A DNA stretch of 64,000 nucleotides from Candidatus Eiseniibacteriota bacterium (GCA_016930695.1 JAFGGD010000031.1:26519-90518), one strand, 5' to 3'. Positions 2,173-58,107 are shown, counted from the first letter of the stretch. Translations and numbers: made by a program. Notes: generated from the sequence alone by a model not told the origin.

Positions 2173-2273
2173 CCCTACACACCCTCTCCTCGAGCGCCTC
2201 ATCATTCTTCCGAAACGCCGCCGGTTGACAAGCCGGCGCGCCGCGTGCCACCCTGTCCACGAAAGGCGCGGCG

Positions 2274-6800: not shown

Positions 6801-6807
6801 AAGACCG

Positions 6808-12120: not shown

Positions 12121-15100
12121 GATGGGTTTGGCCGTCCTCGTCGAAGGGGATGCGAACGGAGCCTTTTTCCACCGGAAGGGGGCGGCCGTCCAATTCCGCC
12201 GCCGTCACCTTTTCCGCGCGGCGGTTCGGGTTCTCCATCTCGATTTCGTAGACCGTCTCTCTCCCCGGAACCCGGAATCGAACGGAACAGCGCGGCCACT
12301 CGTCCGGCACGCGCGGCCGGATCCGGAGCGCCTTCCCTCCCTCCAGGCGGAGGCCCAGGATCGATTCGACGGCGACCCGGTACATCCAGGCCGCCGAGCC
12401 GGTGTACCAGGTCCAGCCGCCGCGCCCCAGATGGGGCGGCTCGCCGTAAACGTCCGCGGCGATCACATAGGGCTCGGCGCGGTAGACGGCGACCCCTTCC
12501 GGCGAGCCGGCGCGCGTGACCGGCGAGAGCATCTCGAGGAGATCCGCCGCGCGTCCGCGCCGTCCTCGCTCGGCCAGGGCCGCGACCAGCCAGAGAGCGG
12601 CGTGTGTGTACTGCCCGCCGTTTTCGCGGACGCCGGGCAGGTATCCCTTGATGTATCCGGGATCCTGCGGCGTGTCGGCGAAGGGAGGAGTGAGCAGGCG
12701 GATCAGGCCATCCTTTTCCGAGACCAGGTGCTTTTCGGCGGAGTCGAGCGCTCGTTCGGCGCGATCCGGGGGCGCCGCGCCGGAGAGGACCGACCACGCC
12801 TGGGCCAGCGCGTCGATGCGGCACTCCGCGCTCTCCCGCGATCCGAGTGGAGTCCCGTCGTCGTAGAAGCCCCGGAGATACCAGTCGCCGTCCCAACCGG
12901 AATCGTTCAGCGCCTTCCCGAGTCCCTCGCGCGCGGCGCGGTACCGGGCGGCGCGTTCGGCGTCCCCACGCTCCTCGCAGACCGGGATGAATCGTTCCAG
13001 CAGGGCGAAGAGGAAGAACCCCATCCAGACGCTTTCCCCTTTCCCCAGGCGTCCCACCCGGTTCATGCCGTCGTTCCAGTCCCCGGTGCCGAAGAGGGGG
13101 AGCCGGTGATCGCCCACGGCGAGAGAGAGATCGATCGCCCGGACGCAGTGGTCGTAGAGGTCGCCGGACAACCCGGATGGGCGGGGTCGGACAAACACTT
13201 CGTCGACGCCCTCCGCCGGAAGAGGCGCCGTCAGGTAGGGAATCGGGACGCGCCAGACGGCATCGTCCCCGGACGTTTCGACATAAAAAGTCGTTATGTA
13301 TGGTAACCAGAGCCGATCGTCGGCGAACCGCGTGCGGATGCCCGCGTCTTCCGGGGGATGCCACCAGTGCAGGACGTCTCCCTCGACGAACTGATGCGCC
13401 GCGTGAAGGAGGATCTGTTCGCGGGTTTTTTCCGGGCGAAGGTAGACGAGCGCCGAGGCGTCCTGGATCTGATCGCGGAAGCCGAAGGCGCCGCCGGACT
13501 GGTAGAGGGCGGTTCTCCCCCGTAATCGGCAGGCGACGGCCTGATAGGGGAGCCAGCCGTTCACCATGATGTCGAGGGCGGGGACCGGCGTTCGGATGCA
13601 CAGGCCGGATCGCATCCGCCGCCACTCCTCCCGCGCGACGTCCAGGGCGCGTTCGACCGCCCCGTCCGCCCGGTACCGCGCGATCAGCGACCGGACCTCC
13701 TCCGCATTCGATCCCTCTCCGAAGAGGAAGGCGCACTCCGCCGAACCGCCGGGCGGGAGTTCGATCGATATTTTTTCCGTGAAGCAAGGATCCAGGTTCG
13801 CCCCCGTCTCTCCCCCCGGCGGATCGTCGTGGAGGAGCGCCGCCGGACGGGCCGCGTCTCCTCCGGCGCCGAGAAAGGCGGCGCGGTCGCAACTGTAATA
13901 GGTCGGACCGGTCGCGGCCGGGGCGACGGCGGCGGCGAATGTCACCGCCCGCGCGAAGGAGCCGGCGAAACGGTTTTCCGCGAGGAGCGCCTTCCCGTTC
14001 GGTTCGAAACGGGTGACTACGAAGCGGCCGCTCTCCTCGGGGGTCGCGCCGAGCACCAGACGGCGATGCGAAAAAAGGCCGAGCCGGCGCGTTTCACCGC
14101 TCCGGTTCGTCAGGCGCACGCGTGTGATCTTCACCGGGTCCCGCGTGGGGACGAAGAATGTGACCTCCTGCTCGATGCCGAGGCTCTTTCCCCGGAAGAG
14201 GGTGTATCCGAATCCGTGCCGTACCTCGCACTCTTCCGGGCCGTCGGCCGGTCCGGGAAGGGGGGACCGGAACTCGCCGCTCTCCTCGTCGCGCATGTAA
14301 AGCGCCTCGCCGTGGGGATCGCGCAGGGGATCGTTCGCCCATGGGGTCAAACGGTGCTCGCGGCTGTTCCCGCTCCACGTGCAACCGGCGCCTCTCTCGC
14401 TCACCAGGAAGCCGACTCGGTCGTTGGCGATCACGTTGATCCACGGGAGGGGGGGAAGACGGAGTTTTCCGTCCGCCCCGGGGCGGAGGCGGATCACGTA
14501 CTCCGAGCCGTCCGGCGTGAATCCCCCGAAGCCGTTGGGGAAAAGAAGATCGCCGTCTCCTTCGGGGAAGACGCTCGCGCCTCCGGCGTCGTGTCGCGCT
14601 TTCCCCGCCGTTTCCCCGGCGGGGGGTACGATCTCCACGGCGCCTCCGCGGCAGAGATCGGGCATCTCCCTCGTAAGGACCAGGCGGGCCGCCGCCTCGA
14701 GGAGATCCGCCCTCTCCGCCGGTATCGTTTCCCGGTCGATGAAGTGCACCGTCCCTCCGTCGTCGAACGGTTTCTCCGGAGATTGGGCGAGTGACGGGTC
14801 GTTCGTGAAAACGACGAGGGGAAAATCGATCCCCGACTTTTTCCAGTAGCGAAGGGCGCTTCGCATCTCCGGGAGAAGGAGGGCTCCCTCCGGAGAGTCG
14901 GCGCGCAGGACGATGTAGGGCGTACCGGGAGAGAGGCCGAAACGCGCGAGGTCCTCCGGCCGTCCCCGAAGACATTCGAGCACCTCCGGCGCGGCCCGAA
15001 GGGAACGTTGGCCGTAAAGAATCGCTCCGGCGAGCGCCTCGTAATACTCCGCCCGGTCCTCCCCGAGTTCCGAGTCGTCGATGCATCCGCGCGCCCTCTC

Positions 15101-15985
15101 CCGGGATCCGGCGAATGCGCGCTCGGCCGCGCCTTCATCCGTCCAGGTCCGGACCAGCGCGAGGGCGTCCTCTTCGACGGGCGCCACGCCCATCAGGAAG
15201 AGGAAGCGAGCCTCGCCGCCCGGACGCAGGAGCGCCTTTCGACGGAGCGCGAAAACGGGGTCGAGCACATTGCCGGAAGAACCGGAGAGGGGCGTGCCGG
15301 CGCTGAGGGCGAGCGGGTCCGCCGGGGATCGACCACGGCCGAGAAAGAGGGCGCGGTCCGTCTCGAACTCGAGCTTTCCCGCGCCGGAGAGCGCGGCGAA
15401 CATCCGGGGATGTCGCTCCGAACCGGACCGGCCGCGGCGTCTCGCGAAAAGCGCGCCCGTCCGGGAGTCGTGCGCGGTCTGCACGAAGAGCTTGGAGAAC
15501 GCCGGGTGGGCGGCGTACGCGCCTGGTTGATCCAGCACGATCTCCGCGTACCCGGTCAGTTCCAATCGACGCTCCCGAACGGACCGGTTGGCGAGCGTGA
15601 TTCTGCGGATTTCGAGGTCCGCGCCGGTGGGTACGCACGTCTCCATGCGGGCATCGATTCCCCCCTGCCGGCGGTCGATGGTGACCACCCCCGGTTCCCA
15701 CTCCGCGCGGTAACCCGCGGCCCCCGATGGGAGGGGATGCCTGCCGATCGACCAAAACCTCCCGCTCTCTTCGTCCCGAAGATAAAAGAGGAGTCCGGTG
15801 TCGTCCTCGAGGGGATCGCCGCTCCAACGGGTCAGCGCGTAATCCTCCCAGCTCGACCTTCCCGTTCCCGCGCCGGTCATGAGCACGGTATACCGGCCGT
15901 TGCCAAGAAATCGGGCGGGAGGGGTCCTCTCTCCACGTCCGTCGAGGGGGGGAAAGTGGGAAGTCTGTCGCAACGACCTCTCCAT
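12098..15985 (-). CDS. GH94-family glycoside phosphorylase-like enzyme, 1295 aa, with two tandem N-terminal beta-sandwich domains and a C-terminal (alpha/alpha)6 catalytic domain. 1,2-beta-oligoglucan phosphorylase is the preferred guess.
   Basis: GH94 N-domain-like motifs occur twice (FLGNGRYTVLMTGAGTGRSSW and VGFLVSERGAGCTWSGNSREHRLTPWANDP). The catalytic-domain motifs are FGFRDQIQDASAL and GTGDWNDGMNRVG. Its size is close to the roughly 1100-aa SOGP-type GH94 enzymes. Confidence 0.75.
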   Translation of the reverse strand: MERSLRQTSHFPPLDGRGERTPPARFLGNGRYTVLMTGAGTGRSSWEDYALTRWSGDPLEDDTGLLFYLRDEESGRFWSIGRHPLPSGAAGYRAEWEPGVVTIDRRQGGIDARMETCVPTGADLEIRRITLANRSVRERRLELTGYAEIVLDQPGAYAAHPAFSKLFVQTAHDSRTGALFARRRGRSGSERHPRMFAALSGAGKLEFETDRALFLGRGRSPADPLALSAGTPLSGSSGNVLDPVFALRRKALLRPGGEARFLFLMGVAPVEEDALALVRTWTDEGAAERAFAGSRERARGCIDDSELGEDRAEYYEALAGAILYGQRSLRAAPEVLECLRGRPEDLARFGLSPGTPYIVLRADSPEGALLLPEMRSALRYWKKSGIDFPLVVFTNDPSLAQSPEKPFDDGGTVHFIDRETIPAERADLLEAAARLVLTREMPDLCRGGAVEIVPPAGETAGKARHDAGGASVFPEGDGDLLFPNGFGGFTPDGSEYVIRLRPGADGKLRLPPLPWINVIANDRVGFLVSERGAGCTWSGNSREHRLTPWANDPLRDPHGEALYMRDEESGEFRSPLPGPADGPEECEVRHGFGYTLFRGKSLGIEQEVTFFVPTRDPVKITRVRLTNRSGETRRLGLFSHRRLVLGATPEESGRFVVTRFEPNGKALLAENRFAGSFARAVTFAAAVAPAATGPTYYSCDRAAFLGAGGDAARPAALLHDDPPGGETGANLDPCFTEKISIELPPGGSAECAFLFGEGSNAEEVRSLIARYRADGAVERALDVAREEWRRMRSGLCIRTPVPALDIMVNGWLPYQAVACRLRGRTALYQSGGAFGFRDQIQDASALVYLRPEKTREQILLHAAHQFVEGDVLHWWHPPEDAGIRTRFADDRLWLPYITTFYVETSGDDAVWRVPIPYLTAPLPAEGVDEVFVRPRPSGLSGDLYDHCVRAIDLSLAVGDHRLPLFGTGDWNDGMNRVGRLGKGESVWMGFFLFALLERFIPVCEERGDAERAARYRAAREGLGKALNDSGWDGDWYLRGFYDDGTPLGSRESAECRIDALAQAWSVLSGAAPPDRAERALDSAEKHLVSEKDGLIRLLTPPFADTPQDPGYIKGYLPGVRENGGQYTHAALWLVAALAERGRRGRAADLLEMLSPVTRAGSPEGVAVYRAEPYVIAADVYGEPPHLGRGGWTWYTGSAAWMYRVAVESILGLRLEGGKALRIRPRVPDEWPRCSVRFRVPGRETVYEIEMENPNRRAEKVTAAELDGRPLPVEKGSVRIPFDEDGQTHHVRIILG

Positions 15986-16112
15986 CGAAGTCTGTAACTC
16001 CTAAAACTACAGATAGTTGTGCGAAGGAGGGGGCGGCGGGCCCCTTTTCCCTCGCGCAGGGCTCTCTCGGACCCCCGCGCATGGTGCCTTTTTATTCACT
16101 TTCCATCAAGGC

Positions 16113-16157
16113 TTGACATAAGTATGTCAGATGTGCGATCATTTGTAAACGGTTACA
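16113..16157. promoter_or_regulatory. Divergent promoter region between the GH94 operon and lacI, holding a -35-like TTGACA and two operator-like palindromes.
   Basis: TTGACA is at 16113-16118. A perfect palindrome TGACATAAGTATGTCA lies at 16114-16129. A LacI/CcpA-type site TGTAAACGGTTACA lies at 16144-16157 (consensus TGNAANCGNTTNCA). All three lie in the only AT-rich stretch of a 70% GC region. Confidence 0.45.
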
Positions 16158-16252
16158 TCGAGTCGTGGGATCAGTCCGGGTGGGCCGGGATCCCAAAGAT
16201 CGAGCCTCGTCCGGCCCGAGAGATAAGATTCCCGACCTTGAGGAGCATCTCT

Positions 16253-17320
16253 ATGGCGACGATCAAGGACGTGGCCCGCGAAGCTGGCGTGTCGGTTGCC
16301 ACCGTTTCCCGTGTGTTCAATGACAGCCCACTGGTGAGTGAGATCACCACCAGCCACGTTCTCGAGGTGGCGCAACGGCTGGATTATTGGCCGAACGGAG
16401 CGGCGCGGAGCCTCAGCACCAATCGCACCGGCACGCTCGGTGTCGTCCTGCCCGACCTTTACGGTGAATTCTTCTCCGAGATCATCCGCGGGATCGACAC
16501 CGCGGCCCGCGAAGAGAAATACCAGATCCTCCTCTCCAGCTCCCACGCCGCCGAAGCGGAACTGGTTTCCGCGGCGCAGGCGATGCGCGGCCGGATCGAC
16601 GGGCTGATCGCCATGGCGCCTCACGTCGACTCCGCGAGATCGCTGGTCGATTTCGCACGGCACTTTCCCGTCGTCCTTCTCAACCCGGGAATGCCCGCGG
16701 AAAACTGCTCCGTCATCTCCATCGCGAATTTCGAGGGAGCCCGCGCCATGGTCCGCCATTTGATCGGGGTGGGCCACCGGCGCATCGCCATGGTGCTCGG
16801 CCCTTCAGGGAACGTGGACGCCGAGGAGAGGCGGAGGGGTTACCGCCGGGCGTTGGATGAAGAAGGGATCGAGGTCGATCCCGCCTTGGAAATCGAAGGC
16901 AATTTCGATCAGGAATCGGGCTACGAGAGCGCGGCCCATCTTCTCCGGCTCGATCCGCGCCCCACCGCGGTTTTCGCCGCCAACGACTGGATGGCCTTCG
17001 GACTGCTGAGCGCGCTCGCCGACGCGGGGATCCGGGTCCCGCAGGAGATGGCGATCACCGGTTTCGACGACATGAGCATCGCCGCCTTCCTCAGTCCTCC
17101 CCTCACGACCGTGCGGGTGGACGCGGTGGAGCTGGGGAAGAGGGCCGTGCAGCTTTGGTTCGACTCGATTCACGCTCGGGAAGAGGAGCGGTTTTTCGCG
17201 TATCAGGTCCTGCCGACCTCTCTCGTGGTTCGCGGCTCCTGCGGCGCGCCGAACGGAACGGCGGCGCCGGAACGTTCGGGCCGATGGACGAACCACGGGA
17301 GGGAAGAAGAACGGGAATGA
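16253..17320 (+). CDS. LacI-family transcriptional regulator.
   Basis: The N-terminal HTH MATIKDVAREAGVSVATVSRVFN is canonical. AGGAGC lies 6 nt upstream. A periplasmic-binding-fold sugar-binding core follows. Confidence 0.9.
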   Translation: MATIKDVAREAGVSVATVSRVFNDSPLVSEITTSHVLEVAQRLDYWPNGAARSLSTNRTGTLGVVLPDLYGEFFSEIIRGIDTAAREEKYQILLSSSHAAEAELVSAAQAMRGRIDGLIAMAPHVDSARSLVDFARHFPVVLLNPGMPAENCSVISIANFEGARAMVRHLIGVGHRRIAMVLGPSGNVDAEERRRGYRRALDEEGIEVDPALEIEGNFDQESGYESAAHLLRLDPRPTAVFAANDWMAFGLLSALADAGIRVPQEMAITGFDDMSIAAFLSPPLTTVRVDAVELGKRAVQLWFDSIHAREEERFFAYQVLPTSLVVRGSCGAPNGTAAPERSGRWTNHGREEERE

Positions 17321-17433
17321 GGACGGGGAGCCGGGCACGACGCCCGGCCATTTCTTTTCGCGTATTGCCGAACGGGGAAGGATCGATCGGTCTTCCGCTC
17401 CGGCGGGACCGGCGAAAGCAGGAGGATGGAGGA

Positions 17434-19329
17434 ATGAGAGGGAGAGGTACAACGGCCGTACTGATCGGCGCGCTTCTGATCGCGTCGACGACCGTCTTCG
17501 GCCAGGCTCCGCGGGAGGACGCCATCTGGGCGCGCTCCACCGACGGAGCGGCCATCACGTTGGACGGCGTGCTGGACGAACCCGCCTGGGCGTCGGCCGA
17601 ATCGATTTCGGTCCAATGGAGCGAAAACGCCGGTATCCCCGGGAGCGGTTGGAAACTGGAGATCGGTGTTCTACCCAAGGACCCCACGCACGCGACTCTG
17701 AAACTTCTCGTGGCGGACAATCAGCTCTATCTGGGCGCCGTCATTCCGGACAGCTCGATCGGCGGCGGTCCGGCCTTCAACCGTTTCGACGGGTTGCTGA
17801 TGGCGATCAAGGATCACGCGGATACGTACGCCCCCAAGCCGCCGTCGGAGTATTTCTACTCCTGGTGGTACCAGGATTGTCCCGATTCCATGGCGCCGGG
17901 GAAAGAGCCCGGGTTCATCGGCAGGTGGGGGAACTTCCCGCCCTGCACGGAACGGGATTCGACGCAGATCGCCAACTGGGACGCCGTGACCGTGGTGAAC
18001 GGCCTCACCAACGACGACACGGTGATCGATCAGGGCTACACCATTGAGATGCGATTCAACCTCACCCCGATGGGCTACGACGTGACGCAGCCGGAAGGGG
18101 ACATCGTCGAGTGGAACGTCTCCGTCTATGACGCCGATTGGTTCTGGCCGATCAACGCGACCAAGGTGTCCGGGAACCGCGTCTGGTGGCAAGGACCGTG
18201 GGGGAACACCGCGTTCTACAGCGAAGTCCGCGTGCACGCGCGCCCCGACGTGACGATCCATTCCGGCCCGGTTCCGGTGATCGAGCCGGAGCTGCGGATA
18301 TCGAACGGGATCGCCTACGACCCGCCGATCATCGACGGCGCGCTCGACGAGACGGTTTGGGACAACGTCCCCTCCTTCGACATCCGCTGGGACGACTCCA
18401 CCCTCCGCGAAACCTATCCCGCGGTGGGACCCCACCGCGCGGGCCAGTATCAGCCCGAGGTGAACGGCGGGCTGGCGGCCGTTCTGGATCCCGCCGACGC
18501 GACGGTGAAACTCTTCTTCCGTGAGGACACGCTCTATTTCGGGTTCGACGTGCGGGACCAGGTGGTGCAGTACCACCCCGAGTTCGACCGTTGGGACGGC
18601 GTGTTGATCAGCATCGACGATCGCGGTCAGCTGAGCGCCGACTCCACGCTGCTCAGCCAGAGGCTCTCCTTCCAGGTCGCCGGGGACGGGTCCGCCCTAC
18701 CGGGTGATTATCTCCCTTACCTGATCGACTCTCTCGGCGGCGCCCGGCTCGCCCTCGCCCTCAAAGGGGGGACGACCGTCGACACGTTCGGTGTTACGCC
18801 CGACTCCGGTTACACCGCCGAGCTGGCTATCGATCTGACCAAGTTCGGATACCCGCCCGGCCGGGGGGACGGCTCGTTCTTCTTCGGCATCAATCTGTTG
18901 GACGGCGATTCCTTCCTGCCGACCAGCGACAGCTACGGCACCCGGACCTGGTGGTTCCGCGAGTACAACGGGACCTGCTGCCCCGTCTGGGCCTACCTGG
19001 ATCCGACCTGTTTGACCGTCGGCGTGGAGGAGGCGGATCAGCCGAGGAAACCCGGGGTGCTCGGCAACTTCCCGAACCCCTTCCGCGGGGGCACGACGGT
19101 CCGCTATATGCTGCCCGAGCGGAGCGACGTCACCATCGAGGTGTTCGACATCCGCGGGCGCCTGGTGAGCAAGCAGAACCTGGGCGATCAGGAGGCGGGC
19201 CTGCGCTCCTTCGACCTCCGGAACATCGACGGAAGCGCCGGCGTCTATTTCTACCGGATCCGCTCGGTGAACGGGAGAACCGGCGCCCGGAACGGTTCGA
19301 CGACCGGAAAGATGACGCTGATTCGGTAA
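17434..19329 (+). CDS. Secreted protein with two CBM9/DOMON-like carbohydrate-binding domains and a C-terminal T9SS sorting domain.
   Basis: GGAGGATGGAGG lies upstream of the ATG at 17434. The signal peptide is AVLIGALLIASTTVFGQAP. DGVLDEPAWASAESI and IDGALDETVWDNVPSF are twin CBM9-like signatures. The C-terminal domain is GNFPNPFRGGTTVRYMLPERSDVTIEVFDIRGRLV...GVYFYRIRS. Confidence 0.65.
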   Translation: MRGRGTTAVLIGALLIASTTVFGQAPREDAIWARSTDGAAITLDGVLDEPAWASAESISVQWSENAGIPGSGWKLEIGVLPKDPTHATLKLLVADNQLYLGAVIPDSSIGGGPAFNRFDGLLMAIKDHADTYAPKPPSEYFYSWWYQDCPDSMAPGKEPGFIGRWGNFPPCTERDSTQIANWDAVTVVNGLTNDDTVIDQGYTIEMRFNLTPMGYDVTQPEGDIVEWNVSVYDADWFWPINATKVSGNRVWWQGPWGNTAFYSEVRVHARPDVTIHSGPVPVIEPELRISNGIAYDPPIIDGALDETVWDNVPSFDIRWDDSTLRETYPAVGPHRAGQYQPEVNGGLAAVLDPADATVKLFFREDTLYFGFDVRDQVVQYHPEFDRWDGVLISIDDRGQLSADSTLLSQRLSFQVAGDGSALPGDYLPYLIDSLGGARLALALKGGTTVDTFGVTPDSGYTAELAIDLTKFGYPPGRGDGSFFFGINLLDGDSFLPTSDSYGTRTWWFREYNGTCCPVWAYLDPTCLTVGVEEADQPRKPGVLGNFPNPFRGGTTVRYMLPERSDVTIEVFDIRGRLVSKQNLGDQEAGLRSFDLRNIDGSAGVYFYRIRSVNGRTGARNGSTTGKMTLIR

Positions 19330-19418: not shown

Positions 19419-22085
19419 GTGTTGGGCGACGCGACATTTCCACGCGCCCGGGCGATTCGTGCGGCGGCGGCGGTGCTGCTCGCCGTCCTGATCCCCTGCG
19501 CCGCGTGGGCGGGAACGACCGGCAAGATCGCCGGTTTCGTTATCGATTACCGGGACAAGCCGATCACGGGGGCTTCGGTCACGGTGATGGAAACGGCCCA
19601 GTTCGCCCTCACCGACGGCGCGGGCCGTTTCAATCTCATCGGGATCCCGGCGGGCGTCTACCGTCTCCAGGTTTCGAAAATGGGCCACATGACCGTGATC
19701 GTGACGGACGTGGTGGTCAGCGCGGATCAGACCGTCTGGCTGGACGTGGATATCCCCGCGTCGACGGACGTGATGTCGGTGATCGAGGTCGTGGCGGACC
19801 GGCCGGTGGTGGAGGTCAACCTCACCAGCTCCATGGTCACGCTGACCGCCGCCGAGATCGAGGATCTGCCGGTGCAGGAACTGCAGGACGTGGTCAATCT
19901 GCAGGCGGGGGTCGTGGACGGGCACTTCCGCGGGGGGCGGATCGGCGAGGTGCAGTTCCAGGTCGACGGCGTCACCGTGAACAACGCCTACGACAACAAG
20001 TCCAGCCTCCGCTTGGACCGTTCTCTCCTGCAGGAGGTGCAGGTGATCAGCGGCACTTTCGACGCCGAGTACGGCCAGGCGATGAGCGGCGTCGTGAACG
20101 CCGTCCTTCGGCGGGGGACTCCGGAATTCCGCTGGAGCATCGAGGCGTTCACCGGCGACCACGTGATGACCGGCGGCGAGGATCGCCGTTTTACCGCCGA
20201 TCCGACAAAGCCCGCCTCCGTGCGGAACACGCAGTTCACCCTGAGCGGCCCCACGGGCCTCCCGGAGACGGTCTTCCTCTTGAACGCGCAGCGCTACACG
20301 GACCAGAGCTTCGTCATCGCGGAGCGGCGCTTCCTCCCGACGGACGACTCCGATTTCGAGAACAAGATCTATTATCCGAACGGAGACAGCACGGAAGTTC
20401 CCCTCGGATTCTCCAAGGAATGGTCCGGCGCGGTGAAGATCACCAACACCTCCCTGGGGAAAGTCCGCGTCTCCTATCAGGCCATCCTCAACCACATCGA
20501 GAACAAGCGGGCCGATTTCGCGTACCGCTACAATCCCGAGGGATTGGCGACGCAGAGGACCTTCTCGCTCGTCCACGGCATCGACGTCAATCACGACCTG
20601 AACGGCTCTTTCTTCTATAACCTGAGCCTTCGCCACAACTATTTCGATTATTCCGACTACGTCTACGAGGACGTGTACGACGTTCGGTACGACCAGGCCG
20701 GACCGACGGTCTCGGACGACAACTACGAGCCGGGCGCTTTCATCCAGGGCGTGGATTTCACCCGCTTCGAGCAGAGAACCGAGACGTTTCTGCTGAAGAC
20801 CTCCCTGGTCGGCCAGGCGACGCAGGAACATATGGTCAAGGTGGGCGGCGAGATCCAGTTGCCGGCGATTCGTTTCGGAACGCCCGGCCATCTGGTGTAC
20901 ACCACCGTGGACGGCGTGGAAGCCCTGGTGCGGCACGTGGAAGATTCGCCGGACTTTCCGCAGGTGAGCGAGTACGAGCCGGTGATCGGCGCCGCCTTCG
21001 CGCAGGACCAGGTGGAGTGGAACGACGTTACCCTGCGCGCGGGGCTGCGGTTCGATTACTTCGACGCCCGCTCCACCGTCCCCGGCGATCCGGCCAATCC
21101 GGCGAACTCCATCAGCGGCGCCCCCGAGTCGCACCCGCGGGATACGAGCCGGAAGGCCTTTCTCTCCCCCCGGTTGGGCGTGGCCTATCCGATCACGGAC
21201 CGGGCGGCGCTTCATTTCGCCTACGGTCATTTCGTTCAGTTCCCGCCCATCGGCAGGATCTTCGACAACGCGGACTATCGAATTCTCAAGGATCTGCAGG
21301 CGGGCGGCATCGATTACGGCGTCATGGGGAACCCGGACATCGGGCCGGAGAAGACGATCCAGTACGAGTTCGGATACAAACAGGCGATCACGCCGGATCT
21401 CGGCATGGACCTGACCCTCTTCTACAAGGACATCCGCGATCTGATCGGCGTCGAATTCGTCTCCACCTATAACGCCGCCGAGTACGCCCGCCTGACCAAC
21501 ATCGATTTCGGGAGCGTCGTCGGCTTCACGCTGGCGCTGGACCGGCGGCGCGTCGGCATGCTGAGCGCCTCGATGGATTACACCTGGCAGATGGCTCGGG
21601 GGAACTCGAGCGATCCCCGGGAGACGGCGACCCGCGCCGAGGCGGGGGAGGACCCGCGCCCCCGGCAGATCCCCTTCGACTGGGACCAGAGACACACCTT
21701 CAACATGACGGTGAGCCTCTCCCGGCCGGAGAACTTCACGGTGAGCGCCATCCTGCGCGCGGCGAGCGGCCAGCCCTACACGCCGGTGTTGGAGTCCGGC
21801 TTCGGCTACGGCCTCGAGGCGAACTCGGGCCGGAAGCCGGCGTCGGCGCTGATCGATCTGCGCGCGGAAAAGGCGGTCCGGACCGCCCGCGGGAAGATGA
21901 GCGTCTTCTGCCGCGTCTTCAATCTGCTCGACGAGAGGTTCTTCAACGGTTTCATTTTTCCCGACACGGGGAGCCCCTACTATTCGCGGTTCCCCGTCGC
22001 CAACGCGGTATCCCTGTCCGATCCCACGCGCTTCTACGAGGCGCGCCGGATCGAGCTGGGCTTGAAATTCGGCATGGGAGGGTAG
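19419..22085 (+). CDS. TonB-dependent outer-membrane receptor with an N-terminal carboxypeptidase-regulatory-like domain.
   Basis: The GTG start leads into the signal peptide AAAAVLLAVLIPCAAWAGT. GKIAGFVIDYRDKPITGASVTV is CarbopepD_reg-like. The plug consensus is LQEVQVISGTFDAEYGQAMSGVVNAVLRRG. A long beta-barrel follows. Confidence 0.7.
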   Translation: MLGDATFPRARAIRAAAAVLLAVLIPCAAWAGTTGKIAGFVIDYRDKPITGASVTVMETAQFALTDGAGRFNLIGIPAGVYRLQVSKMGHMTVIVTDVVVSADQTVWLDVDIPASTDVMSVIEVVADRPVVEVNLTSSMVTLTAAEIEDLPVQELQDVVNLQAGVVDGHFRGGRIGEVQFQVDGVTVNNAYDNKSSLRLDRSLLQEVQVISGTFDAEYGQAMSGVVNAVLRRGTPEFRWSIEAFTGDHVMTGGEDRRFTADPTKPASVRNTQFTLSGPTGLPETVFLLNAQRYTDQSFVIAERRFLPTDDSDFENKIYYPNGDSTEVPLGFSKEWSGAVKITNTSLGKVRVSYQAILNHIENKRADFAYRYNPEGLATQRTFSLVHGIDVNHDLNGSFFYNLSLRHNYFDYSDYVYEDVYDVRYDQAGPTVSDDNYEPGAFIQGVDFTRFEQRTETFLLKTSLVGQATQEHMVKVGGEIQLPAIRFGTPGHLVYTTVDGVEALVRHVEDSPDFPQVSEYEPVIGAAFAQDQVEWNDVTLRAGLRFDYFDARSTVPGDPANPANSISGAPESHPRDTSRKAFLSPRLGVAYPITDRAALHFAYGHFVQFPPIGRIFDNADYRILKDLQAGGIDYGVMGNPDIGPEKTIQYEFGYKQAITPDLGMDLTLFYKDIRDLIGVEFVSTYNAAEYARLTNIDFGSVVGFTLALDRRRVGMLSASMDYTWQMARGNSSDPRETATRAEAGEDPRPRQIPFDWDQRHTFNMTVSLSRPENFTVSAILRAASGQPYTPVLESGFGYGLEANSGRKPASALIDLRAEKAVRTARGKMSVFCRVFNLLDERFFNGFIFPDTGSPYYSRFPVANAVSLSDPTRFYEARRIELGLKFGMGG

Positions 22086-22090
22086 GCGAA

Positions 22091-25000
22091 GTGCGGACGG
22101 GCCTCTTCCATTCCAAGAAGACGAGGGAAAAGGGAGCCGGCCGGCGGGCGAAGCGGCTCCGCCTTCTCGGCGCCGCGGCGGCGCTGTCGCTCCTGTGCGT
22201 ATCGAAGCCGGCGGGCGAACTCCAGCCGTTGGTCTCCGCGGACGAGCGCGGCCGAGTCGACGCCGAGCGCGCGGGGCACCACGACGCGGCCGACCTCCGC
22301 ACGATCTTCTACAACTTCGGGATGGTGGGGGACTATCCGCCCGACCCGGGGAACGTGGACCTTTCCGTGTTCCACTCCGCCGAGGTTCCGAAGGGGAGCG
22401 GCATGAATTACTGCGACGGCATCACCCCCTTCGTGCTCGCCAAGATCACCCAGAGGAACGGGCTGGACGCCTACATCATGGAGACCGGGTTCCGGGAGAG
22501 GCAGGGGATCTCCCCCTACTACAACCGGGTCATGCGTTTTGAACCCAGGCCCGGCTATTTCCAGGCGGATCCGACTCTGAACCTCGCCCGCTCCCCGGCG
22601 GTGAGCCATGATCCGCGCACCTGGCCGTACCAGTGGCCGGACCGCATGGACGATCCGGACGATCCGGGCTGGTCGGGGGATTGGAACGGTTACTTCGGAA
22701 AGAGGGCGGCGGCGGACCAGGAAAGCTACACCGTCATGGACGATGACTTCTACGACGCCTGGGACTTCTACCCGGACAGCCGCGACTCGACCCGTCACGG
22801 GCTCGGGCTCCGGATCGAGGTGCGCGGTTTCCAGTGGTCCAACCCCCAGGCGAGCAACGTCATCTTCTGGCACTACGACATCACCAACGAGGGGACCACC
22901 GACTACAACGACAACATCATTTTCGGTCTCTATATGGATTCGGGCGTCGGCGGCTCGGCTCTTTCCTGCGACGGGATCTATGAGTCCGACGACGACAACG
23001 CCTACTTCGACAAGTCGTCGGGTCTCAATTTGGTTTACACCTGGGACAAATACGGACACGGCGTGGACCTCTCCGGCAAATGCGGCGACACCGGCTATCT
23101 CGGCTACGCCTATCTGGAGACCCCCGGCGCTCCGCTGGACGGGATCGACAACGACGAAGACGGCATCCTGAACGAAAGGCGGGACGGCGGCCCCGGCGAG
23201 AAGATCGTCGGCAGGGACGCCATCCGCGCGTGGACCTCCCTCTACTACGACATGGACAAGTTCGAGGAGACCTACGGCCTCCTCACGGAGCGGCCGGCTT
23301 ACAAAATCGGCGAGTGGTGGACCGGCGACGAGGACATGGACTGGAACCCGGAGTTGCACGACGTCGGCGCCGACGGCGTTCCCGAGACGGAGGACACCGG
23401 CGAAGGGGACGGCATGCCGACCGCCGGAGAGCCCTACTTCGACGAGACGGATCTGAACGAATCGGACATGATCGGTCTCACCGGGTTCAAGATGAACCGG
23501 ATCCGCGCCGGGCAGGGGAATCCGAACCCGGAGGTGGACGGCATCCTCTTCTACATGAACGACGCGCGCTGGCCCGAGCGCCTCTACGATCAGTTCACCG
23601 ATCCGAACGCGGCGGACCGCTTCGACTCGGCGCTCGCCGCGAACTACAACATCGGATTCCTCTTCGCCTCCGGACCCTTCATCCTCCGCGCCGGCCAGAC
23701 GGAGCGGTTCAGCCTCGCCCTCGCCTATGGCGCCAATCTGGGCGAACTGCGCAACACGGTGAAAACGGTCCAGCAGATCTACGACGCGAACTATCAGTTC
23801 GCCGTGCCGCCGCCGCTCCCCACGCTGACCGCGGAAACGGGCGACGGCTTCGTGCGGCTCTCCTGGGACGACCAGGCGGAGCACGGTTTCGACCCGGTCA
23901 CCTTCACCAACGATTTCGAGGGGTACAGGATCTATCGCTCCACCGATCCGGAGTTCCGCGATCCCCGGGTGATCACCACCGGGTCCGGCACCGGCCCCAT
24001 CGGCAACGGCCGGCCGATCGCACAGTTCGACGTGGCCGACTCGATCGCGGGGTATTCGAACCAGACCTGGGAAGGGGTGGCTTACTGGCTGGGGGACGAA
24101 ACGGGGATCACGCACACCTGGACCGACTCGACGGTGACCAACGGGCGGAAGTACTACTACGCGGTCACCTCCTACGATTACGGATCCGATTCGCTCGGCT
24201 TCTATCCCTCCGAAAACTCGATCAACGTCTCCCGGACCCCCCGAGGGGGCGAGATCCTGCCGCAGAACGTGGTGGCGGTCCGGCCGGAGCCGAAGGTCAC
24301 CGGGTACGTGCGGGCCGAGACGGACACGGTGGCGCACCGGGAGGGGCGCGGCTCGGGCGAGGCGGAGATCCTGGTGGTGAACTCCAACCTCGTCCCGGAC
24401 GAACACGTTTTCGAGATTCGATTCAAGACCCCCTCGGAGGACAGCCTGCGGGCCATTTCCTATTCGCTGGTCGACAGCACCGAAGGCCGGACCGTCTTCT
24501 CCCGCGGCATGGACTTGAACGGCGAGGGAACCGGACCGGTGGGGGACGGCATGCTTCCAGTGGTCCGCACGCCGGCCACCGTTTTCGTGGACAGCGCCGC
24601 CTCCGGGTTCGTCCCCGGCGGCCCGACGAACACGCGCCTGAAGATCTCCTATTTGGAGGTGCTCCCGATCAACCTGAGGCGGCCCGGCTTCCCGGACGAC
24701 CTCACCGTCACCTTCTCGGACGACGTGGTGGACACGTCGCTGGCGATCTTCCCCCTTCCGGCGAAGCCGGCCAAGTTCCGCGTGGTCGCGCGCGCCGAAG
24801 AGGGGGACGGAAATCTCGATTTCCGATTCCGCGACGTGGACGGGGACGGCACCCTGAGCGATCCGTCGGAGTACGTCGACGTGGTCACCTATTCCGACGG
24901 ACTTCCCGGAGTGCCGATGGTGACCTGGCGCGTCCAGCTCGACACGGTCGGCCAGGGGGAACGCGGAGAGATGATTCCGCCCGCCGGAGGGGACGTGTAC

Positions 25001-25405
25001 GAGGTGTTCCTGACGCGTCCCTACGGCGCGGACGACGTCTTGGCCTTCCGGACAAGCGGCGAGCGGATCGACGAGGGGAAGGAAGAGGGGGCGGAGCTCG
25101 CCCCTTACGTGGTGCCCAATCCGTACGTGGGATCCGCCTCCTTCGAAGCGGAGAGGTACGCCACCTCCGGGCGGGGCGAGCGGCGGATCGAGTTCCGCGG
25201 CCTCCCCCGGGGCAGCACGATCCGGATCTACACGGTGACGGGGGAGCTGGTGCGGACGCTCCACCACGACGGATCGGACGACGGCGCCGTGGCCTGGGAT
25301 CTGCGCACCAAGGACAACCTCGACGTCGCGCCCGGGCTGTACATCTATCACGTCGACGCGGGCCGGGTCGGCACGCACGTCGGCAAGTTCGCGATCATCA
25401 AATGA
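22091..25405 (+). CDS. Large (1104 aa) secreted Asp-rich protein with a T9SS C-terminal sorting domain. Possible PorU-like protein or surface glycan-binding protein.
   Basis: The signal is LLGAAAALSLLCVS. Thrombospondin-type-3-like acidic Ca-binding repeats are present (DGIDNDEDGILNE; DEDMDWNPELHDVGADGVPETEDTGEGDGMP). The C-terminal domain is PNPYVGSASFEAE...IRIYTVTGELVRTL...GLYIYHV. It sits immediately upstream of the PorV-like gene. Confidence 0.5.
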   Translation: MRTGLFHSKKTREKGAGRRAKRLRLLGAAAALSLLCVSKPAGELQPLVSADERGRVDAERAGHHDAADLRTIFYNFGMVGDYPPDPGNVDLSVFHSAEVPKGSGMNYCDGITPFVLAKITQRNGLDAYIMETGFRERQGISPYYNRVMRFEPRPGYFQADPTLNLARSPAVSHDPRTWPYQWPDRMDDPDDPGWSGDWNGYFGKRAAADQESYTVMDDDFYDAWDFYPDSRDSTRHGLGLRIEVRGFQWSNPQASNVIFWHYDITNEGTTDYNDNIIFGLYMDSGVGGSALSCDGIYESDDDNAYFDKSSGLNLVYTWDKYGHGVDLSGKCGDTGYLGYAYLETPGAPLDGIDNDEDGILNERRDGGPGEKIVGRDAIRAWTSLYYDMDKFEETYGLLTERPAYKIGEWWTGDEDMDWNPELHDVGADGVPETEDTGEGDGMPTAGEPYFDETDLNESDMIGLTGFKMNRIRAGQGNPNPEVDGILFYMNDARWPERLYDQFTDPNAADRFDSALAANYNIGFLFASGPFILRAGQTERFSLALAYGANLGELRNTVKTVQQIYDANYQFAVPPPLPTLTAETGDGFVRLSWDDQAEHGFDPVTFTNDFEGYRIYRSTDPEFRDPRVITTGSGTGPIGNGRPIAQFDVADSIAGYSNQTWEGVAYWLGDETGITHTWTDSTVTNGRKYYYAVTSYDYGSDSLGFYPSENSINVSRTPRGGEILPQNVVAVRPEPKVTGYVRAETDTVAHREGRGSGEAEILVVNSNLVPDEHVFEIRFKTPSEDSLRAISYSLVDSTEGRTVFSRGMDLNGEGTGPVGDGMLPVVRTPATVFVDSAASGFVPGGPTNTRLKISYLEVLPINLRRPGFPDDLTVTFSDDVVDTSLAIFPLPAKPAKFRVVARAEEGDGNLDFRFRDVDGDGTLSDPSEYVDVVTYSDGLPGVPMVTWRVQLDTVGQGERGEMIPPAGGDVYEVFLTRPYGADDVLAFRTSGERIDEGKEEGAELAPYVVPNPYVGSASFEAERYATSGRGERRIEFRGLPRGSTIRIYTVTGELVRTLHHDGSDDGAVAWDLRTKDNLDVAPGLYIYHVDAGRVGTHVGKFAIIK

Positions 25406-25419
25406 GCGGCGGAAGAAAA

Positions 25420-26430
25420 ATGCGCTTCTTTACGATCGTCATCGCGCTCCTGATCCTGGCGTCGCCGGGGTGCGTCTTCGCCCAGAGCAAGACCGGGACG
25501 GCGATCGGGCAGTTCCTGCTCATCGAGCCGAGCGCGCGCTTCGCCGCCATGGGGAACGCGGGGGTGTCCGCGGCGGAGGGGATCCAGGGCGCCTATTACA
25601 ACCCCGCCGCCGTCGGCGCCCTCGATCGCCGGGAGCTGATGTTCACGCACAGCACCTGGCTCGCGGACATTTCCTACGACTACGCCGCGCTGGCGATTCC
25701 GGTGCGGTCGCTCGGGACGTTCTTCGCGGCGGTGACGTCTCTGAACTCGGGAGAGATGGACGTGCGGACGGTCGAGCAACCGCTCGGAACGGGGGAGCGT
25801 TTCGACGCGGCGGATCTGGCGTTCGGTCTCGGTTACGGGCGGCGGATTACCGACCGCTTCGACGCGGGAGTGCAGATCAACTATGTGGACCAGCGGATCT
25901 GGCACAGTTCCCTCCGCACGGTTACGTTGAATGTGGGCACTCTCTACCGGATCACCGAGGGCGGGCTCCGCATCGGGTCGAGCCTCGTGAACTATGGAAC
26001 GAAGGCCGGGTTCGGCGGGAGGGATCTCCGCATTCAGTATGACGCCGATACCGACATCTACGGCGACAACAGCTCCCTTCCCGCGGAGCAGCACACGGAG
26101 GAGTACGCCCTCCCCGTTCTGTTCCGCGTCGGCCTTCTCTGGCCGGTCCGGACCGGGGAGGAGCATCGGTTACTCACGGCGATCGACGCCTTCCACCCCA
26201 GCGACAACACGGAGAGCGTCAGCATGGGCGCGGAATGGATCTGGAAAGAGGCGTTTTCGGCGCGTGGCGGGTATCAAGACCTTTTCCAGCAGGACGCCGA
26301 GGTCGGTTGGACCTTCGGGCTCGGCTTCCGGCAGGTGATGGAGACCTACGGGTTCGATCTGGATTACGCCTGGGCGGACCATGGAAGACTGGAGGACACG
26401 CATCGCGTCACTTTCGTGGTGCGCTTCTGA
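25420..26430 (+). CDS. porV: PorV/LptO-family outer-membrane beta-barrel (T9SS shuttle protein-like).
   Basis: The signal peptide is MRFFTIVIALLILASPGCVFAQ. The N-terminal motif FLLIEPSARFAAMGNAGVSAAEGIQGAYYNPAA matches the conserved PorV N-terminus. Alternating beta-strand periodicity runs through to a C-terminal aromatic residue (VTFVVRF). The start could be the ATG at 25402 instead. Confidence 0.6.
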   Translation: MRFFTIVIALLILASPGCVFAQSKTGTAIGQFLLIEPSARFAAMGNAGVSAAEGIQGAYYNPAAVGALDRRELMFTHSTWLADISYDYAALAIPVRSLGTFFAAVTSLNSGEMDVRTVEQPLGTGERFDAADLAFGLGYGRRITDRFDAGVQINYVDQRIWHSSLRTVTLNVGTLYRITEGGLRIGSSLVNYGTKAGFGGRDLRIQYDADTDIYGDNSSLPAEQHTEEYALPVLFRVGLLWPVRTGEEHRLLTAIDAFHPSDNTESVSMGAEWIWKEAFSARGGYQDLFQQDAEVGWTFGLGFRQVMETYGFDLDYAWADHGRLEDTHRVTFVVRF

Positions 26431-26470: not shown

Positions 26471-28051
26471 ATGAAACGAATGAAGTGGATGGTCGGAGCG
26501 CTCCTCCTCCTGACGGTGGCCGCGGCGGACGCGCAGATCACCGATGAGGCGCTTCTGGACTCGCTCCAGAGGACCGCTTTCGATTTTTTCTGGAATGAGG
26601 CGAATCCGACCACGGGATTGATCCGGGACCGGAGCGCATCCTGGTCCCCCTGCAGCATCGCTTCCACCGGGTTCGGCCTCACGGCGATCTGCATCGGCAT
26701 CGAACACGGTTGGATCACACGCGAGCAGGGGAGGGAGAGGATCCTGGCGGCACTGCGGACCTTCTGGAACGCGCCCCAGGGGAGCGGTTCGAGCGGCTTC
26801 GCGGGCTACAAGGGGCTCTTCTATCACTTCCTGACCATGGACACCGCGGAGAGAACCTGGGACTGCGAGCTCTCCACCATCGACACGGCTCTTCTCTTCG
26901 CGGGCATTTTCGACGCGAAGGAATATTTCGACGGGACCGATTCCCTCGACGTGGAGGTTCGCTCTCTGGCCGACTCGATCACCACACGGGCGGAGTGGGA
27001 TTGGATCCACTCCGGCTGGGGGATCCGGATGGGCTGGAAGCCGGACACCGGATTCTCCGGATACGGCGACTGGATCGGCTACAACGAGGCGATGATCCTC
27101 TACATCATCGCCCTCGGATCGCCCACGCATCCGGTGCCCGCCTACTCCTGGACCGCCTGGACGAGCGGCTACGACTGGCGGACCAACTACGGCTACACCT
27201 ACGTGGAGTTCCCGCCCCTCTTCGGCCACCAGTATTCGCACTGCTGGATCGATTTCCGCTGCATCCAGGACGCCTACATGCAGTCGAAGGGGATCGATTA
27301 TTTCGAGAACTCCCGGCGCGCCACGCTCGCCCAGAGGGCGTACTGCATCGACAATCCCGGCAACCACATCGGCTACAGCGACAGCCTCTGGGGAATCACC
27401 GCGGGGGACGGTCCCTTCGGCTACACGGCCCGCGGGGCGCCCCCCGGTCAGAACGACGACGGGACGATCACCCCCTCGGCGACGGTCAGTTCACTCCCCT
27501 TCGCGCCGGAGGTGGTCATGGCGGCCACCCGCAACATGTACAATGCGTACGGTTCCCAGCTCTGGATGGAGTACGGGTTCCGGGACGGTTTTAACCTCAA
27601 CTACGCCTGGTGGGGGCCGGATGTGATCGGCATCTCCGAGGGCCCCATCCTTCTGATGATCGAGAACTACCTGAACGGTTCGGTCTGGAGCCGGTTCACG
27701 CAGAACGACGACATCCGGGCCGGTCTGGAAGCGGCGGGATTCACCGGCTGTTTCGTCGCCGTGGACGGGCCGGCGGAGGAGGAGTCGCCGACGGCGCTCC
27801 TCGCCGGGAACCGGCCCAATCCCTTCCGGGGGGAGACCACCATCTGGTTCCGCATGCCGGAGAGGGGTTCGGCGAGGCTGACGGTCTACAACGTGGCCGG
27901 GCGCGAGGTCGCCCGCCTCTTCGACGGAGAGAGGAGCGCCGGCTTCCACCAGATCGAGTGGAACGGCGCCGGGCTTCCGAGCGGCGTGTATTACTACCGC
28001 CTCCAAACGGAGACGGAGACTTTCATAAAGAGGTGCGTGCTTCTGAGGTAA
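26471..28051 (+). CDS. GH144/DUF3131-like (alpha/alpha)6 glycoside hydrolase fused to a T9SS C-terminal sorting domain; paralogue of 2274..3743.
   Basis: The signal peptide is LLLLTVAAADAQ. It shares the motifs DTALLFAGIF, YNEAMILYIIALGSPTHP and DYFENSRRATLAQRAYCIDNPGNHIGYSDSLWGITAGDGP with its paralogue. The C-terminal domain is GNRPNPFRGETTIWFRMPERGSARLTVYNVAGREV...GVYYYRL. Confidence 0.65.
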   Translation: MKRMKWMVGALLLLTVAAADAQITDEALLDSLQRTAFDFFWNEANPTTGLIRDRSASWSPCSIASTGFGLTAICIGIEHGWITREQGRERILAALRTFWNAPQGSGSSGFAGYKGLFYHFLTMDTAERTWDCELSTIDTALLFAGIFDAKEYFDGTDSLDVEVRSLADSITTRAEWDWIHSGWGIRMGWKPDTGFSGYGDWIGYNEAMILYIIALGSPTHPVPAYSWTAWTSGYDWRTNYGYTYVEFPPLFGHQYSHCWIDFRCIQDAYMQSKGIDYFENSRRATLAQRAYCIDNPGNHIGYSDSLWGITAGDGPFGYTARGAPPGQNDDGTITPSATVSSLPFAPEVVMAATRNMYNAYGSQLWMEYGFRDGFNLNYAWWGPDVIGISEGPILLMIENYLNGSVWSRFTQNDDIRAGLEAAGFTGCFVAVDGPAEEESPTALLAGNRPNPFRGETTIWFRMPERGSARLTVYNVAGREVARLFDGERSAGFHQIEWNGAGLPSGVYYYRLQTETETFIKRCVLLR

Positions 28052-53701: not shown

Positions 53702-53715
53702 TTTTGGTGGTTGAG

Positions 53716-55376: not shown

Positions 55377-55443
55377 GAGGGACGGCGACGCCGCCGTTTT
55401 AGAAACGATCGATGGCGCAAGCAATCGTTACGGGGAGGAGAGG

Positions 55444-56685: not shown

Positions 56686-56706
56686 ACGGGTGAAGGAGGA
56701 ATTGCG

Positions 56707-57885: not shown

Positions 57886-58107
57886 CCGGGTCCGGCCGGA
57901 AGAGGATGGGGGCGGACGCGGCGCCGCTTGTCGCCTCGTCCCCGCCGGTTCACCCGGAGTCGCGAATCCCGACGGCCGGATCGGCCCGAAAAACACCGCC
58001 GGGCCGTTCCGCATCGCCGGCGTCCCGTCACGGAGCGTCTCGTCGCTCCACTCCTTCACCCCGCGGGACGGACGGGGGAACGCGATCGTCGCGGGCGAAT
58101 CGGATCG

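Follow-up and report, generated by a model that had tools for sequence, protein, structure and literature searches.

The 64,000-nucleotide stretch of Candidatus Eiseniibacteriota bacterium analyzed here (GCA_016930695.1 JAFGGD010000031.1:26519-90518; hereafter the window, to whose first letter all positions refer) is part of a Candidatus Eisenbacteria metagenome-assembled genome (MAG) and carries, over about 1-29 kb, a locus for carbohydrate utilization. Within this locus three co-directional genes on the plus strand follow each other closely: a TonB-dependent transporter (TBDT), a large secreted protein of 1104 aa (22091-25405) for which we coined the label BIG, and an outer-membrane beta-barrel of the PorV/PorQ family, with gaps of only 5 bp and 14 bp between them. 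This layout had been proposed in an earlier description made from the DNA alone (the sequence-only reading) and it is borne out by the bounds of the open reading frames (ORFs) and their start and stop codons. The TBDT ORF opens with GTG at 19419, with GGAGAG just upstream, and stops with TAG at 22085; BIG runs from GTG at 22091 to TGA at 25405; the barrel ORF starts with ATG at 25420 and ends at 26430. A second in-frame ATG of the barrel gene is situated at 25402, where it overlaps the stop codon of BIG (ATGA; window 25402-25422). Whichever of the two starts is used, 25402 or 25420, the spacing would imply that BIG and the barrel are translationally coupled. The G+C content of the window is 64-70% and long spurious ORFs are therefore common in it; despite this background the three ORFs of the trio are genuine genes.

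The TBDT (19419..22085) is 888 aa long and begins with a signal peptide. The CarboxypepD_reg N-domain (aa 37-111, about 19527-19751; PF13620, 54.7 bits), Plug (aa 135-225, about 19821-20093; PF07715, 28.1 bits, cut-off 23.9) and TonB_dep_Rec barrel of the 22-strand type (Pfam match at aa 372-836; PF00593, 118.2 bits, cut-off 27) all exceed the Pfam cut-offs, and PF25183 is matched as well (37.3 bits). With both plug and barrel over threshold the protein is a TonB-dependent transporter, and the N-terminal domain that the sequence-only reading had assigned to it is confirmed. A putative TonB box, SVIEVVADRP, can be read by eye between the N-domain and the plug. Membership in SusC/RagA was considered and rejected: TIGR04056 scores 34.9 bits against the required 368.25, over the N-terminal 125 aa only.

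BIG is composed of a signal peptide (aa 1 to ~44), an N-terminal core (N-core; aa 45-580, 22223..23830), an FN3 domain (aa ~576-720) followed by variable Ig-like beta-sandwiches (aa ~721-1004; together 23816..25102) and a C-terminal domain (CTD; aa 1005-1104, 25103..25405). No Pfam domain or NCBIfam family was found in it, the sole NCBIfam match being to the last 70 residues of PorZ, and none of the Pfam families related to CAZy matches its sequence. The protein matches a 'hypothetical protein' from a Candidatus Eisenbacteria MAG at 100% identity, and the more than 1500 database homologues that share 66-78% identity with it over the full length are all unnamed and likewise free of Pfam domains. 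When 1.84 billion cluster representatives were searched exhaustively with HMMER, the family came to 4192, 1971 and 565 clusters at E<=1e-3, 1e-10 and 1e-30, respectively. Full-length members have 1000-1600 aa and signal peptides of the signal peptidase I (SPase-I) type, and the C-terminus of each member inspected reads ...GKFA(I/V)IK or something close to it (such as IIN or IVN). Two other identities were rejected for BIG. SusD/RagB is disfavored by the lack of a Pfam match, the mostly beta model and SPase-I signal peptides ending in AQ; a lipoprotein anchor is disfavored by the 'LSLLC' of the window's signal peptide, which is not conserved, the signal peptides of the homologues ending in A-Q.

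Asp makes up 9.7% of BIG overall, 12-14% of residues 46-520 and 13.7% of a partly helical insertion in the N-core (aa ~345-520, roughly 23123-23650) which has a DxDxDG motif at aa 353. The insertion carries motifs of the types DGxDNDxDGxxDE and GEGDGxPTxGEPNFDxTDxxESDQIGLT that are conserved throughout the superfamily and, judged by these motifs, look like Ca2+-binding loops. Columns D218, R245, D353, E362, D454 and D459 are invariant in the superfamily alignment A3, and C293 and C331 are invariant among orthologues. Residues 735-1004 are the variable part of the protein, 46% identical among orthologues and hardly alignable among paralogues. As a whole, BIG is the best conserved protein at the orthologous loci described below, with a mean identity to the window of 63%, compared with 53% for both the TBDT and the barrel, 55% for a GH144 enzyme and 42% for a CBM9 protein of the same loci.

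In a model of full-length BIG calculated with AlphaFold2 (AF2) from an alignment of 77 close orthologues, aa 575-1104 were well modelled as FN3, Ig-like sandwiches and a CTD sandwich, with a predicted local distance difference test (pLDDT) score above 85 for the FN3/Ig part, while the N-core was poor (pLDDT 40-70). A Foldseek comparison of this model with the PDB returned strings of FN3 domains (TM <0.15) and PorZ (5m11), and nothing useful on the core. The fold of the N-core was obtained by modelling aa 45-580 with an alignment of diverse paralogues, and in this model it is a beta-supersandwich like that of galactose mutarotases. About 255 residues could be aligned with the structural matches, at 7-14% identity. 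A sequence profile of BIG run against the PDB sequences yielded only an FN3-like match (E=0.24), and neither an (alpha/alpha)6 domain nor any other known catalytic domain follows the core.

The CTD of BIG, with the terminal motif GKFAIIK, is a type-A-like type IX secretion system (T9SS) domain, because a profile of 37 BIG-family CTDs matches the canonical CTDs of neighboring proteins with an hhalign probability of 96% (E=2.9e-9, 72 columns). It is nevertheless divergent, and the homology is one of sequence profiles: the CTD in the window scores 15.8 bits with TIGR04183, below the cut-off of 23, and this model matches 32 of the 37 family CTDs at E<1 (best 7e-6). The prediction of a large, Asp-rich, secreted protein with a T9SS CTD thus stood in its signal peptide, its Asp content and, at the level of profiles, its CTD, the match to the standard CTD model being below the cut-off. 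With NCBIfam, the best match for the 37 CTDs is the tail of PorZ (35/37), followed by the tail of PorU (33/37), all of them under the curated cut-offs, while the type B model TIGR04131 matches only two. Of ten CTDs from neighboring proteins, each exceeds the TIGR04183 cut-off (28-44 bits), and PorZ is matched by none of them. In the AF2 model the CTD forms a beta-sandwich at aa 1030-1104. It is preceded by an insertion specific to the family, located after the VVPNPY motif and ahead of the first strand, in which the E is (near-)invariant and the GRGER consensus strongly conserved (E...GRGER) and which is disordered in the model (aa 1013-1029, pLDDT <50). Among orthologues the CTD of BIG is 74% identical, equal to its core, while in the CBM9 and GH144 proteins from the same loci the CTD, at 39-42%, is the least conserved part.

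The third protein of the trio (25420..26430) has 336 aa when counted from the later start. Its signal peptide ends in ...CVFAQ, and an N-terminal GQFLLIEPSARFAAMGNAGVS motif is present. It matches the PorV/PorQ-family model NF033709 with 180.9 bits (cut-off 90), aa 30-335 covering profile positions 4-325 of 326, and with this full-length match and an N-terminal FL...ARxxxMGxA motif it belongs to the PorV/PorQ family, in accordance with the PorV-like barrel that had been predicted. The best sequence match in the PDB is PorV of Flavobacterium johnsoniae (6h3i_F, E=3.5e-6, N-terminal 140 aa). PorV proper was rejected (NF033710, 61.9 bits against 250; Pfam PF19572, 18.1 against 27), and so was PorV2, which is under its equivalog cut-off; PorQ proper was rejected too (NF033711, 87.8 bits against 220, over aa 7-195 only), although it is still the best specific model. 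A FadL/OmpP1/TodX channel, which the sequence-only reading had named as one of two findings that together would speak against its own proposal, was checked and rejected (Toluene_X PF03349, 18.0 bits against 29.7).

To follow the trio beyond the window, 80 orthologous BIG loci (57-78% identity) were collected from a scan of species-representative genomes, gene order was read with tblastn using the window proteins, and adjacency was counted only where the flank suffices. The loci are labelled as Eisenbacteria, Gemmatimonadetes, Calditrichaeota, KSB1/Zhuqueibacterota, Ignavibacteriota, Krumholzibacteriia, Rhodothermales, Chlorobiales and 'Bacteroidota' MAGs. The TBDT is immediately 5' of BIG in 61 of the 62 testable loci and the barrel is immediately 3' of BIG in all 67 testable ones. 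Only in one locus (L021, 2243-4263) are TBDT and BIG apart, by about 2 kb, which may be an insertion. The near-universal order is LacI, CBM9-CTD (1-4 copies), TBDT, BIG, barrel, GH144-CTD, GH94, second GH144 and a 265-aa protein. A CBM9-CTD protein is found upstream of the TBDT in 58/80 loci and the LacI regulator is syntenic in 38/80. In loci of the Calditrichota and KSB1 type (L010, L012, L017, L018, L022, L026, L045 and L051) tandem arrays of 2-4 CBM9-CTD paralogues lie upstream of the TBDT, which suggests an expanded layer of binding proteins.

The same order of TBDT, BIG and a PorV/UPF0164-type barrel was found around more distant relatives. Nine BIG paralogues (31-45% identity) were examined, one of them on a 4.4-kb contig too short to judge, and the order is present in 8/8 contexts with enough flank. 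Since it is kept in these as well as in the orthologous loci, the arrangement is far from chance. Full-length homology of the paralogous cassettes to the window amounts to 32-34% for the TBDT, 31-35% for BIG and 32-39% for the barrel; the three proteins diverge in parallel, as is expected of proteins working together, and the trio thus duplicates and diverges as a unit. A co-diverging barrel pairs one-to-one with every BIG paralogue. This points to a barrel dedicated to BIG and makes the general T9SS shuttle embedded in a transport array, as assumed in the sequence-only reading, unlikely. The arrangement had also been regarded as unusual; it is no peculiarity of this genome but a widespread unannotated module. 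The neighbors of the paralogous cassettes are diverse: GH38 and GH130 with an FG-GAP+CTD protein, an MFS transporter and a ROK kinase (L081); a CBM9+CTD protein and GH26+CTD (L084); a GDSL esterase (L085); FG-GAP/ASPIC and CBM9+CTD proteins (L086); GH99, CBM9+CTD, CBM96+CTD, an SSF transporter and a sulfatase (L088); a CBM20+CTD protein (L090/L091); amylase+CTD, CBM9+CTD, three GH3 and GH5 in the cultured Rosettibacter firmus (L092); and GH13/GH57, an ATP-binding cassette (ABC) system and CBM20, with an extra CTD protein between BIG and barrel, in WOR-3 (L093). Judged by homology, the enzymes beside paralogous trios are those for mannosides, mannan, starch and beta-glucan. A frequent fourth member of the cassette is a protein with CBM or FG-GAP domains and a canonical type A CTD.

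In the window the trio is surrounded by genes which, by homology, define a beta-1,2-glucan utilization cluster, because homologues of GH144, of GH94 (SOGP-type) and of the Lin1841-like sophoro-oligosaccharide ABC system are co-located. Directly downstream of the barrel is a homologue of GH144-type endo-beta-1,2-glucanases with a canonical T9SS type A CTD (26471..28051, plus strand; PF10091, 263 bits; Por_Secre_tail), whose PDB matches include 8xul (E=1.8e-118) and the endo-beta-1,2-glucanase 5gzh (E=5e-54); because of its CTD this enzyme is predicted to be extracellular. Upstream of the TBDT is a secreted CBM9 protein, also with a canonical type A CTD (17155..19329, plus strand, the true start probably being downstream of 17155; Por_Secre_tail and CBM9_1, TIGR04183 44.1 bits), the usual fourth cassette member and a candidate surface glycan-binding protein. 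It is preceded by a LacI-family regulator (16019..17320, plus strand; Pfam LacI and Peripla_BP_3) with an uncertain start, the helix-turn-helix beginning at aa 81 of the ORF, and on the minus strand by a GH94 protein (12098..15985; Pfam GH94 domains, PDB 8rf9 with E=1.2e-259) and a GH1 beta-glucosidase (10720..12204; PF00232, 488 bits). Further to the left, on the plus strand, are a second GH144-type glucanase (PF10091) without a CTD match (2229-3743), an ABC sugar-binding protein (3578-5092, stop-to-stop bounds) and two ABC permeases (4726-5982 and 5895-6800), all assigned by Pfam. In the PDB, the binding protein is matched by the sophoro-oligosaccharide-binding protein Lin1841 (5ysb, E=1.5e-72).

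Three further ORFs of this locus are on the plus strand. A 265-aa ORF without a Pfam match (28172-28969) directly follows the GH144-CTD gene; homologues with 42-64% identity occur in 17/80 orthologous loci, sometimes in two copies (L038), and it probably belongs to the beta-1,2-glucan locus as one more unannotated member. A 1069-aa protein (6793-10002), encoded between the permeases and GH1, has F5/8 type C (discoidin) at aa 202-311 as its sole Pfam match, the greater part of its length being unassigned; it could be an uncharacterised pathway enzyme (compare the GH35 transferase of the Ignavibacterium album cluster mentioned below). At the left end of the locus, immediately ahead of the second GH144 gene, is a 366-aa ORF (1013-2113) with coding-like G+C content at third codon positions (GC3) and no Pfam match. 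Elsewhere the window contains methylmalonyl-CoA mutase genes, a sulfatase and an ordinary dcw cell-division cluster (about 41100-57900, plus strand: mraW, Mur ligases, mraY, ftsW, ftsA, ftsZ), and the window is therefore chromosomal. Near its right end a 297-aa protein (62930-63823, minus strand) combines CBM96 with a weak CTD-like tail (FlgD_ig, 32.1 bits; CHU_C, 19.7 with a cut-off of 27), possibly another T9SS-type cargo, unlinked to the locus. No second BIG, barrel or TBDT paralogue was found within the 64-kb window.

We consider it probable, with some reserve, that the trio is an outer-membrane glycan-uptake module, here for beta-1,2-glucan, which would work as follows. The GH144 endoglucanase secreted by the T9SS and the CBM9 protein would act on extracellular beta-1,2-glucan. 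BIG would leave the cell via Sec and then the T9SS, and its uncleaved CTD would dock on the barrel encoded directly 3', in the way PorZ docks on PorQ and PorU on PorV, which would place BIG on the cell surface beside the TBDT. There its supersandwich core, carried on an FN3/Ig stalk, would capture oligosaccharides and hand them to the TBDT, or cap the transporter, a role that would parallel that of SusD and of surface glycan-binding lipoproteins for SusC in Bacteroidia. The TBDT, energized by TonB, would import the oligosaccharides, and the second, periplasmic GH144, the ABC importer, the GH94 phosphorylase and the GH1 beta-glucosidase would complete catabolism under the control of LacI. PorZ and PorU are T9SS proteins whose CTDs are not removed and are used to bind the PorQ and PorV barrels, and cognate PorV-like barrels have been suggested, in a review, to shield CTDs from cleavage (PMC10202324). 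If the conservation of the CTD, its insertion, its PorZ/PorU-like tail and the PorQ-like barrel are taken together, the most economical reading, made by analogy with these proteins, is that BIG would be kept on the cell surface by its own barrel through an uncleaved CTD.

Several points weigh against this reading. The supersandwich fold is also present in proteins which are not lectins, such as the periplasmic domain of YidC and epimerases, and the identity of the BIG core to its structural matches is as low as given above. Loci with different substrates share a conserved core (35-45% identity), which is odd for a determinant of specificity; the core may carry out a step independent of the substrate, such as docking to the TBDT or handling of the glycan chain, with the variable Ig region and the CBM proteins giving specificity. 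The matches of the CTD to PorZ and PorU are far under the curated cut-offs, which are made for whole proteins. Strict adjacency is not universal: on the WOR-3 contig (L093, 10001-17703) the protein that splits BIG from the barrel is a 949-aa Por_Secre_tail/FlgD_ig protein, and a single barrel may be shared by two CTD proteins in that lineage. Within the window, which covers only 64 kb of the genome, neither a T9SS core gene nor a second porU/porV-like pair is present, and it is the canonical type A CTDs of the two neighboring proteins that would imply a T9SS in this genome. Finally, the analysis shows the identities of the genes, the class of substrate by homology, the synteny and co-divergence of the trio, the fold of the BIG core and the class and unusual conservation of the CTD, while a complex of the three proteins, retention of the CTD, binding of sugars by BIG and the direction of transport are inferred.

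Among the alternatives, the one that deserves most attention is that the barrel serves solely as a cofactor or shuttle for export, taking BIG through the T9SS without being its permanent anchor, BIG then being attached otherwise or released and still serving the TBDT. SprF, for comparison, is needed for the secretion of SprB. PorV itself is a shuttle (PMC10202324), and the one-to-one pairing and co-divergence would fit such a role of the barrel equally well. However, the CTD of BIG resembles the two CTDs known to be retained and is as conserved as the core, while a signal that is cleaved off would be expected to drift, as the CTDs of the neighbors do; for these reasons we find an export role without anchoring unlikely. 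Rather improbable is also that BIG is a surface enzyme on the supersandwich scaffold, for example a new glycanase, lyase or epimerase, and that it has no binding or lid role. This fold is catalytic in galactose mutarotases, and BIG has the six superfamily-invariant columns, but core and invariant residues alike are shared by beta-1,2-glucan, mannoside, mannan, starch and beta-glucan loci, which makes a substrate-specific active site unlikely. Moreover, D353, E362, D454 and D459 are within DxDxDG-like or acidic loops typical of Ca2+ sites, and the Pfam families related to CAZy give no match.

Two further explanations we regard as much less credible. A FadL/OmpP1-type channel as the third gene, or a TBDT that exports as Oar does for PopC in Myxococcus, would leave the genes unrelated to anchoring. 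The barrel does show a weak Toluene_X match (E=0.001), and secretion dependent on an Oar-type TBDT has been described, in those portions of the article available to us (PMC6434023). Against this, the Toluene_X score stays under its cut-off while the PorV/PorQ-family model is matched over its full length, the T9SS CTDs on BIG and its neighbors mean that no other exporter is needed, and the ABC importer and cytoplasmic catabolic enzymes of the locus, which act downstream, argue for import; this explanation is very improbable. Hardly conceivable is that BIG and the barrel are a sortase and shuttle pair like porU-porV that happens to sit in a nutrient-uptake array, the analogy drawn by the sequence-only reading. 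A large CTD protein followed by a PorV-family barrel, and a CTD weakly matching the tail of PorU, do recall that pair. The search for Peptidase_C25 and PorU in BIG, however, found no C25 or other protease domain, the PorU model (NF033707) reaches 17.6 bits against 420 and covers the CTD only, and the barrel is far below the PorV cut-off and nearer to PorQ; in addition, hundreds of paralogous trios tied to different sets of carbohydrate-active enzymes (CAZymes) are incompatible with a single housekeeping pair. The fallback of the earlier proposal, a surface glycan- or Ca-binding protein which is not a protease and whose anchoring by the T9SS is linked to TonB-dependent uptake, is close in spirit to the uptake module that we favor, although glycan binding itself has the standing of an inference.

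Compared with known systems, the functionally closest are the SusC/SusD loci of Bacteroidia. They share with the trio the N-terminal layout of the TBDT (a CarboxypepD_reg-like domain, TonB box and plug), its position directly 5' of a surface partner within a regulated gene cluster that also encodes CAZymes, further binding proteins and importers of the inner membrane, and the many duplications of the pair together with different sets of enzymes. They differ in that BIG has a supersandwich and FN3 architecture and SusD a TPR-like fold, that the TBDT is outside SusC/RagA, and that BIG is a T9SS cargo with its own beta-barrel and not a lipoprotein, hence a module of three genes. The logic of anchoring is nearer to PorZ-PorQ, PorU-PorV and SprB-SprF. 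As in the PorZ-PorQ and PorU-PorV pairs of Porphyromonas gingivalis, a large T9SS cargo with a PorZ/PorU-like CTD goes with a barrel of the PorV/PorQ family; unlike them, BIG has neither the beta-propellers of PorZ nor the C25 peptidase of PorU, the barrel is under both equivalog cut-offs, and BIG and barrel are present in multiple copies in catabolic loci beside a TBDT and not as a single-copy component of secretion. Type B cargo genes cluster with genes of cognate PorP/SprF barrels (PMC10202324). In the SprB-SprF type B systems of F. johnsoniae, too, the cargo gene is followed by that of its cognate PorV-like barrel, a proposed anchor or specific exporter, and there are many paralogous pairs per genome; in contrast, the CTD of BIG is type-A-like, its barrel is of the PorV/PorQ and not the PorP/SprF family, and the context is nutrient uptake and not gliding adhesins.

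Neither the trio nor the BIG family was found described in the literature searched, and journals outside it may hold a description. The closest parallel is the beta-1,2-glucanase (SGL) cluster of I. album which, as far as the accessible text of the article goes, has two GH144, GH94, a sophoro-oligosaccharide ABC system and a TBDT, its genes including IALB_1177, 1179, 1185 and 1187 (PMC8861115). According to the same portions of text, that study characterised the GH35 transferase only, and the role of the TBDT was speculative, without biochemical evidence; a search for terms in them gave no mention of a BIG-like or PorV-like gene, IALB_1181-1183 included. The genome paper of Caldithrix abyssi does not mention the trio. 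It is also absent from what was available of a 2026 review of bacterial glycoside transporters, in which a search for terms found no PorV, T9SS, Ignavibacteria, Gemmatimonadota or Calditrichota. [quoted passage not shown] For the xylan locus of Rhodothermus marinus (Rmar_1067-1073) a LacI regulator and two CAZymes bearing CTDs are listed, together with Rmar_1070 (a TBDT), Rmar_1071 (hypothetical, carrying a Por sorting domain) and Rmar_1072 (also hypothetical), the order of which was not commented on (PMC6987092). Judged by this listed order, Rmar_1070-1072 are probably the same cassette, in an organism which is cultured and genetically tractable.

What is new here is a widespread combination of parts that are known, and a very large unannotated family; the trio recurs in many sugar-utilization loci of bacteria without SusD. 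More tentatively, and a little short of what we would call probable, bacteria of the Fibrobacteres-Chlorobi-Bacteroidetes (FCB) group outside Bacteroidia and their neighbors may import glycans through an unrecognised three-part machine of a TBDT, a supersandwich protein that leaves through the T9SS and a PorQ-like barrel reserved for that protein, which keeps hold of its uncleaved CTD; the lineages covered by this proposal are Eisenbacteria, Gemmatimonadota, Calditrichota, KSB1, Ignavibacteria, Rhodothermales, Chlorobiales-like bacteria and WOR-3. If this is true, the module would be the T9SS-anchored counterpart of the SusCD utilisome. Prediction of polysaccharide utilization loci relies on the SusC/SusD pair, and the BIG family would be a marker for those loci which tools based on that pair have missed. 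Annotation would gain a marker family of thousands of clusters that presently has no Pfam or NCBIfam model. The hypothesis is testable in cultured organisms, R. firmus with its cassette being one of them and R. marinus probably another. For the biology of the T9SS, the principle of a cognate barrel holding an uncleaved CTD would extend from PorZ-PorQ, PorU-PorV and the gliding adhesins to nutrient-capture complexes duplicated many times over, and, if the trio is a real module, abundant lineages of soil, sediment and hot springs would gain a recognisable uptake system.

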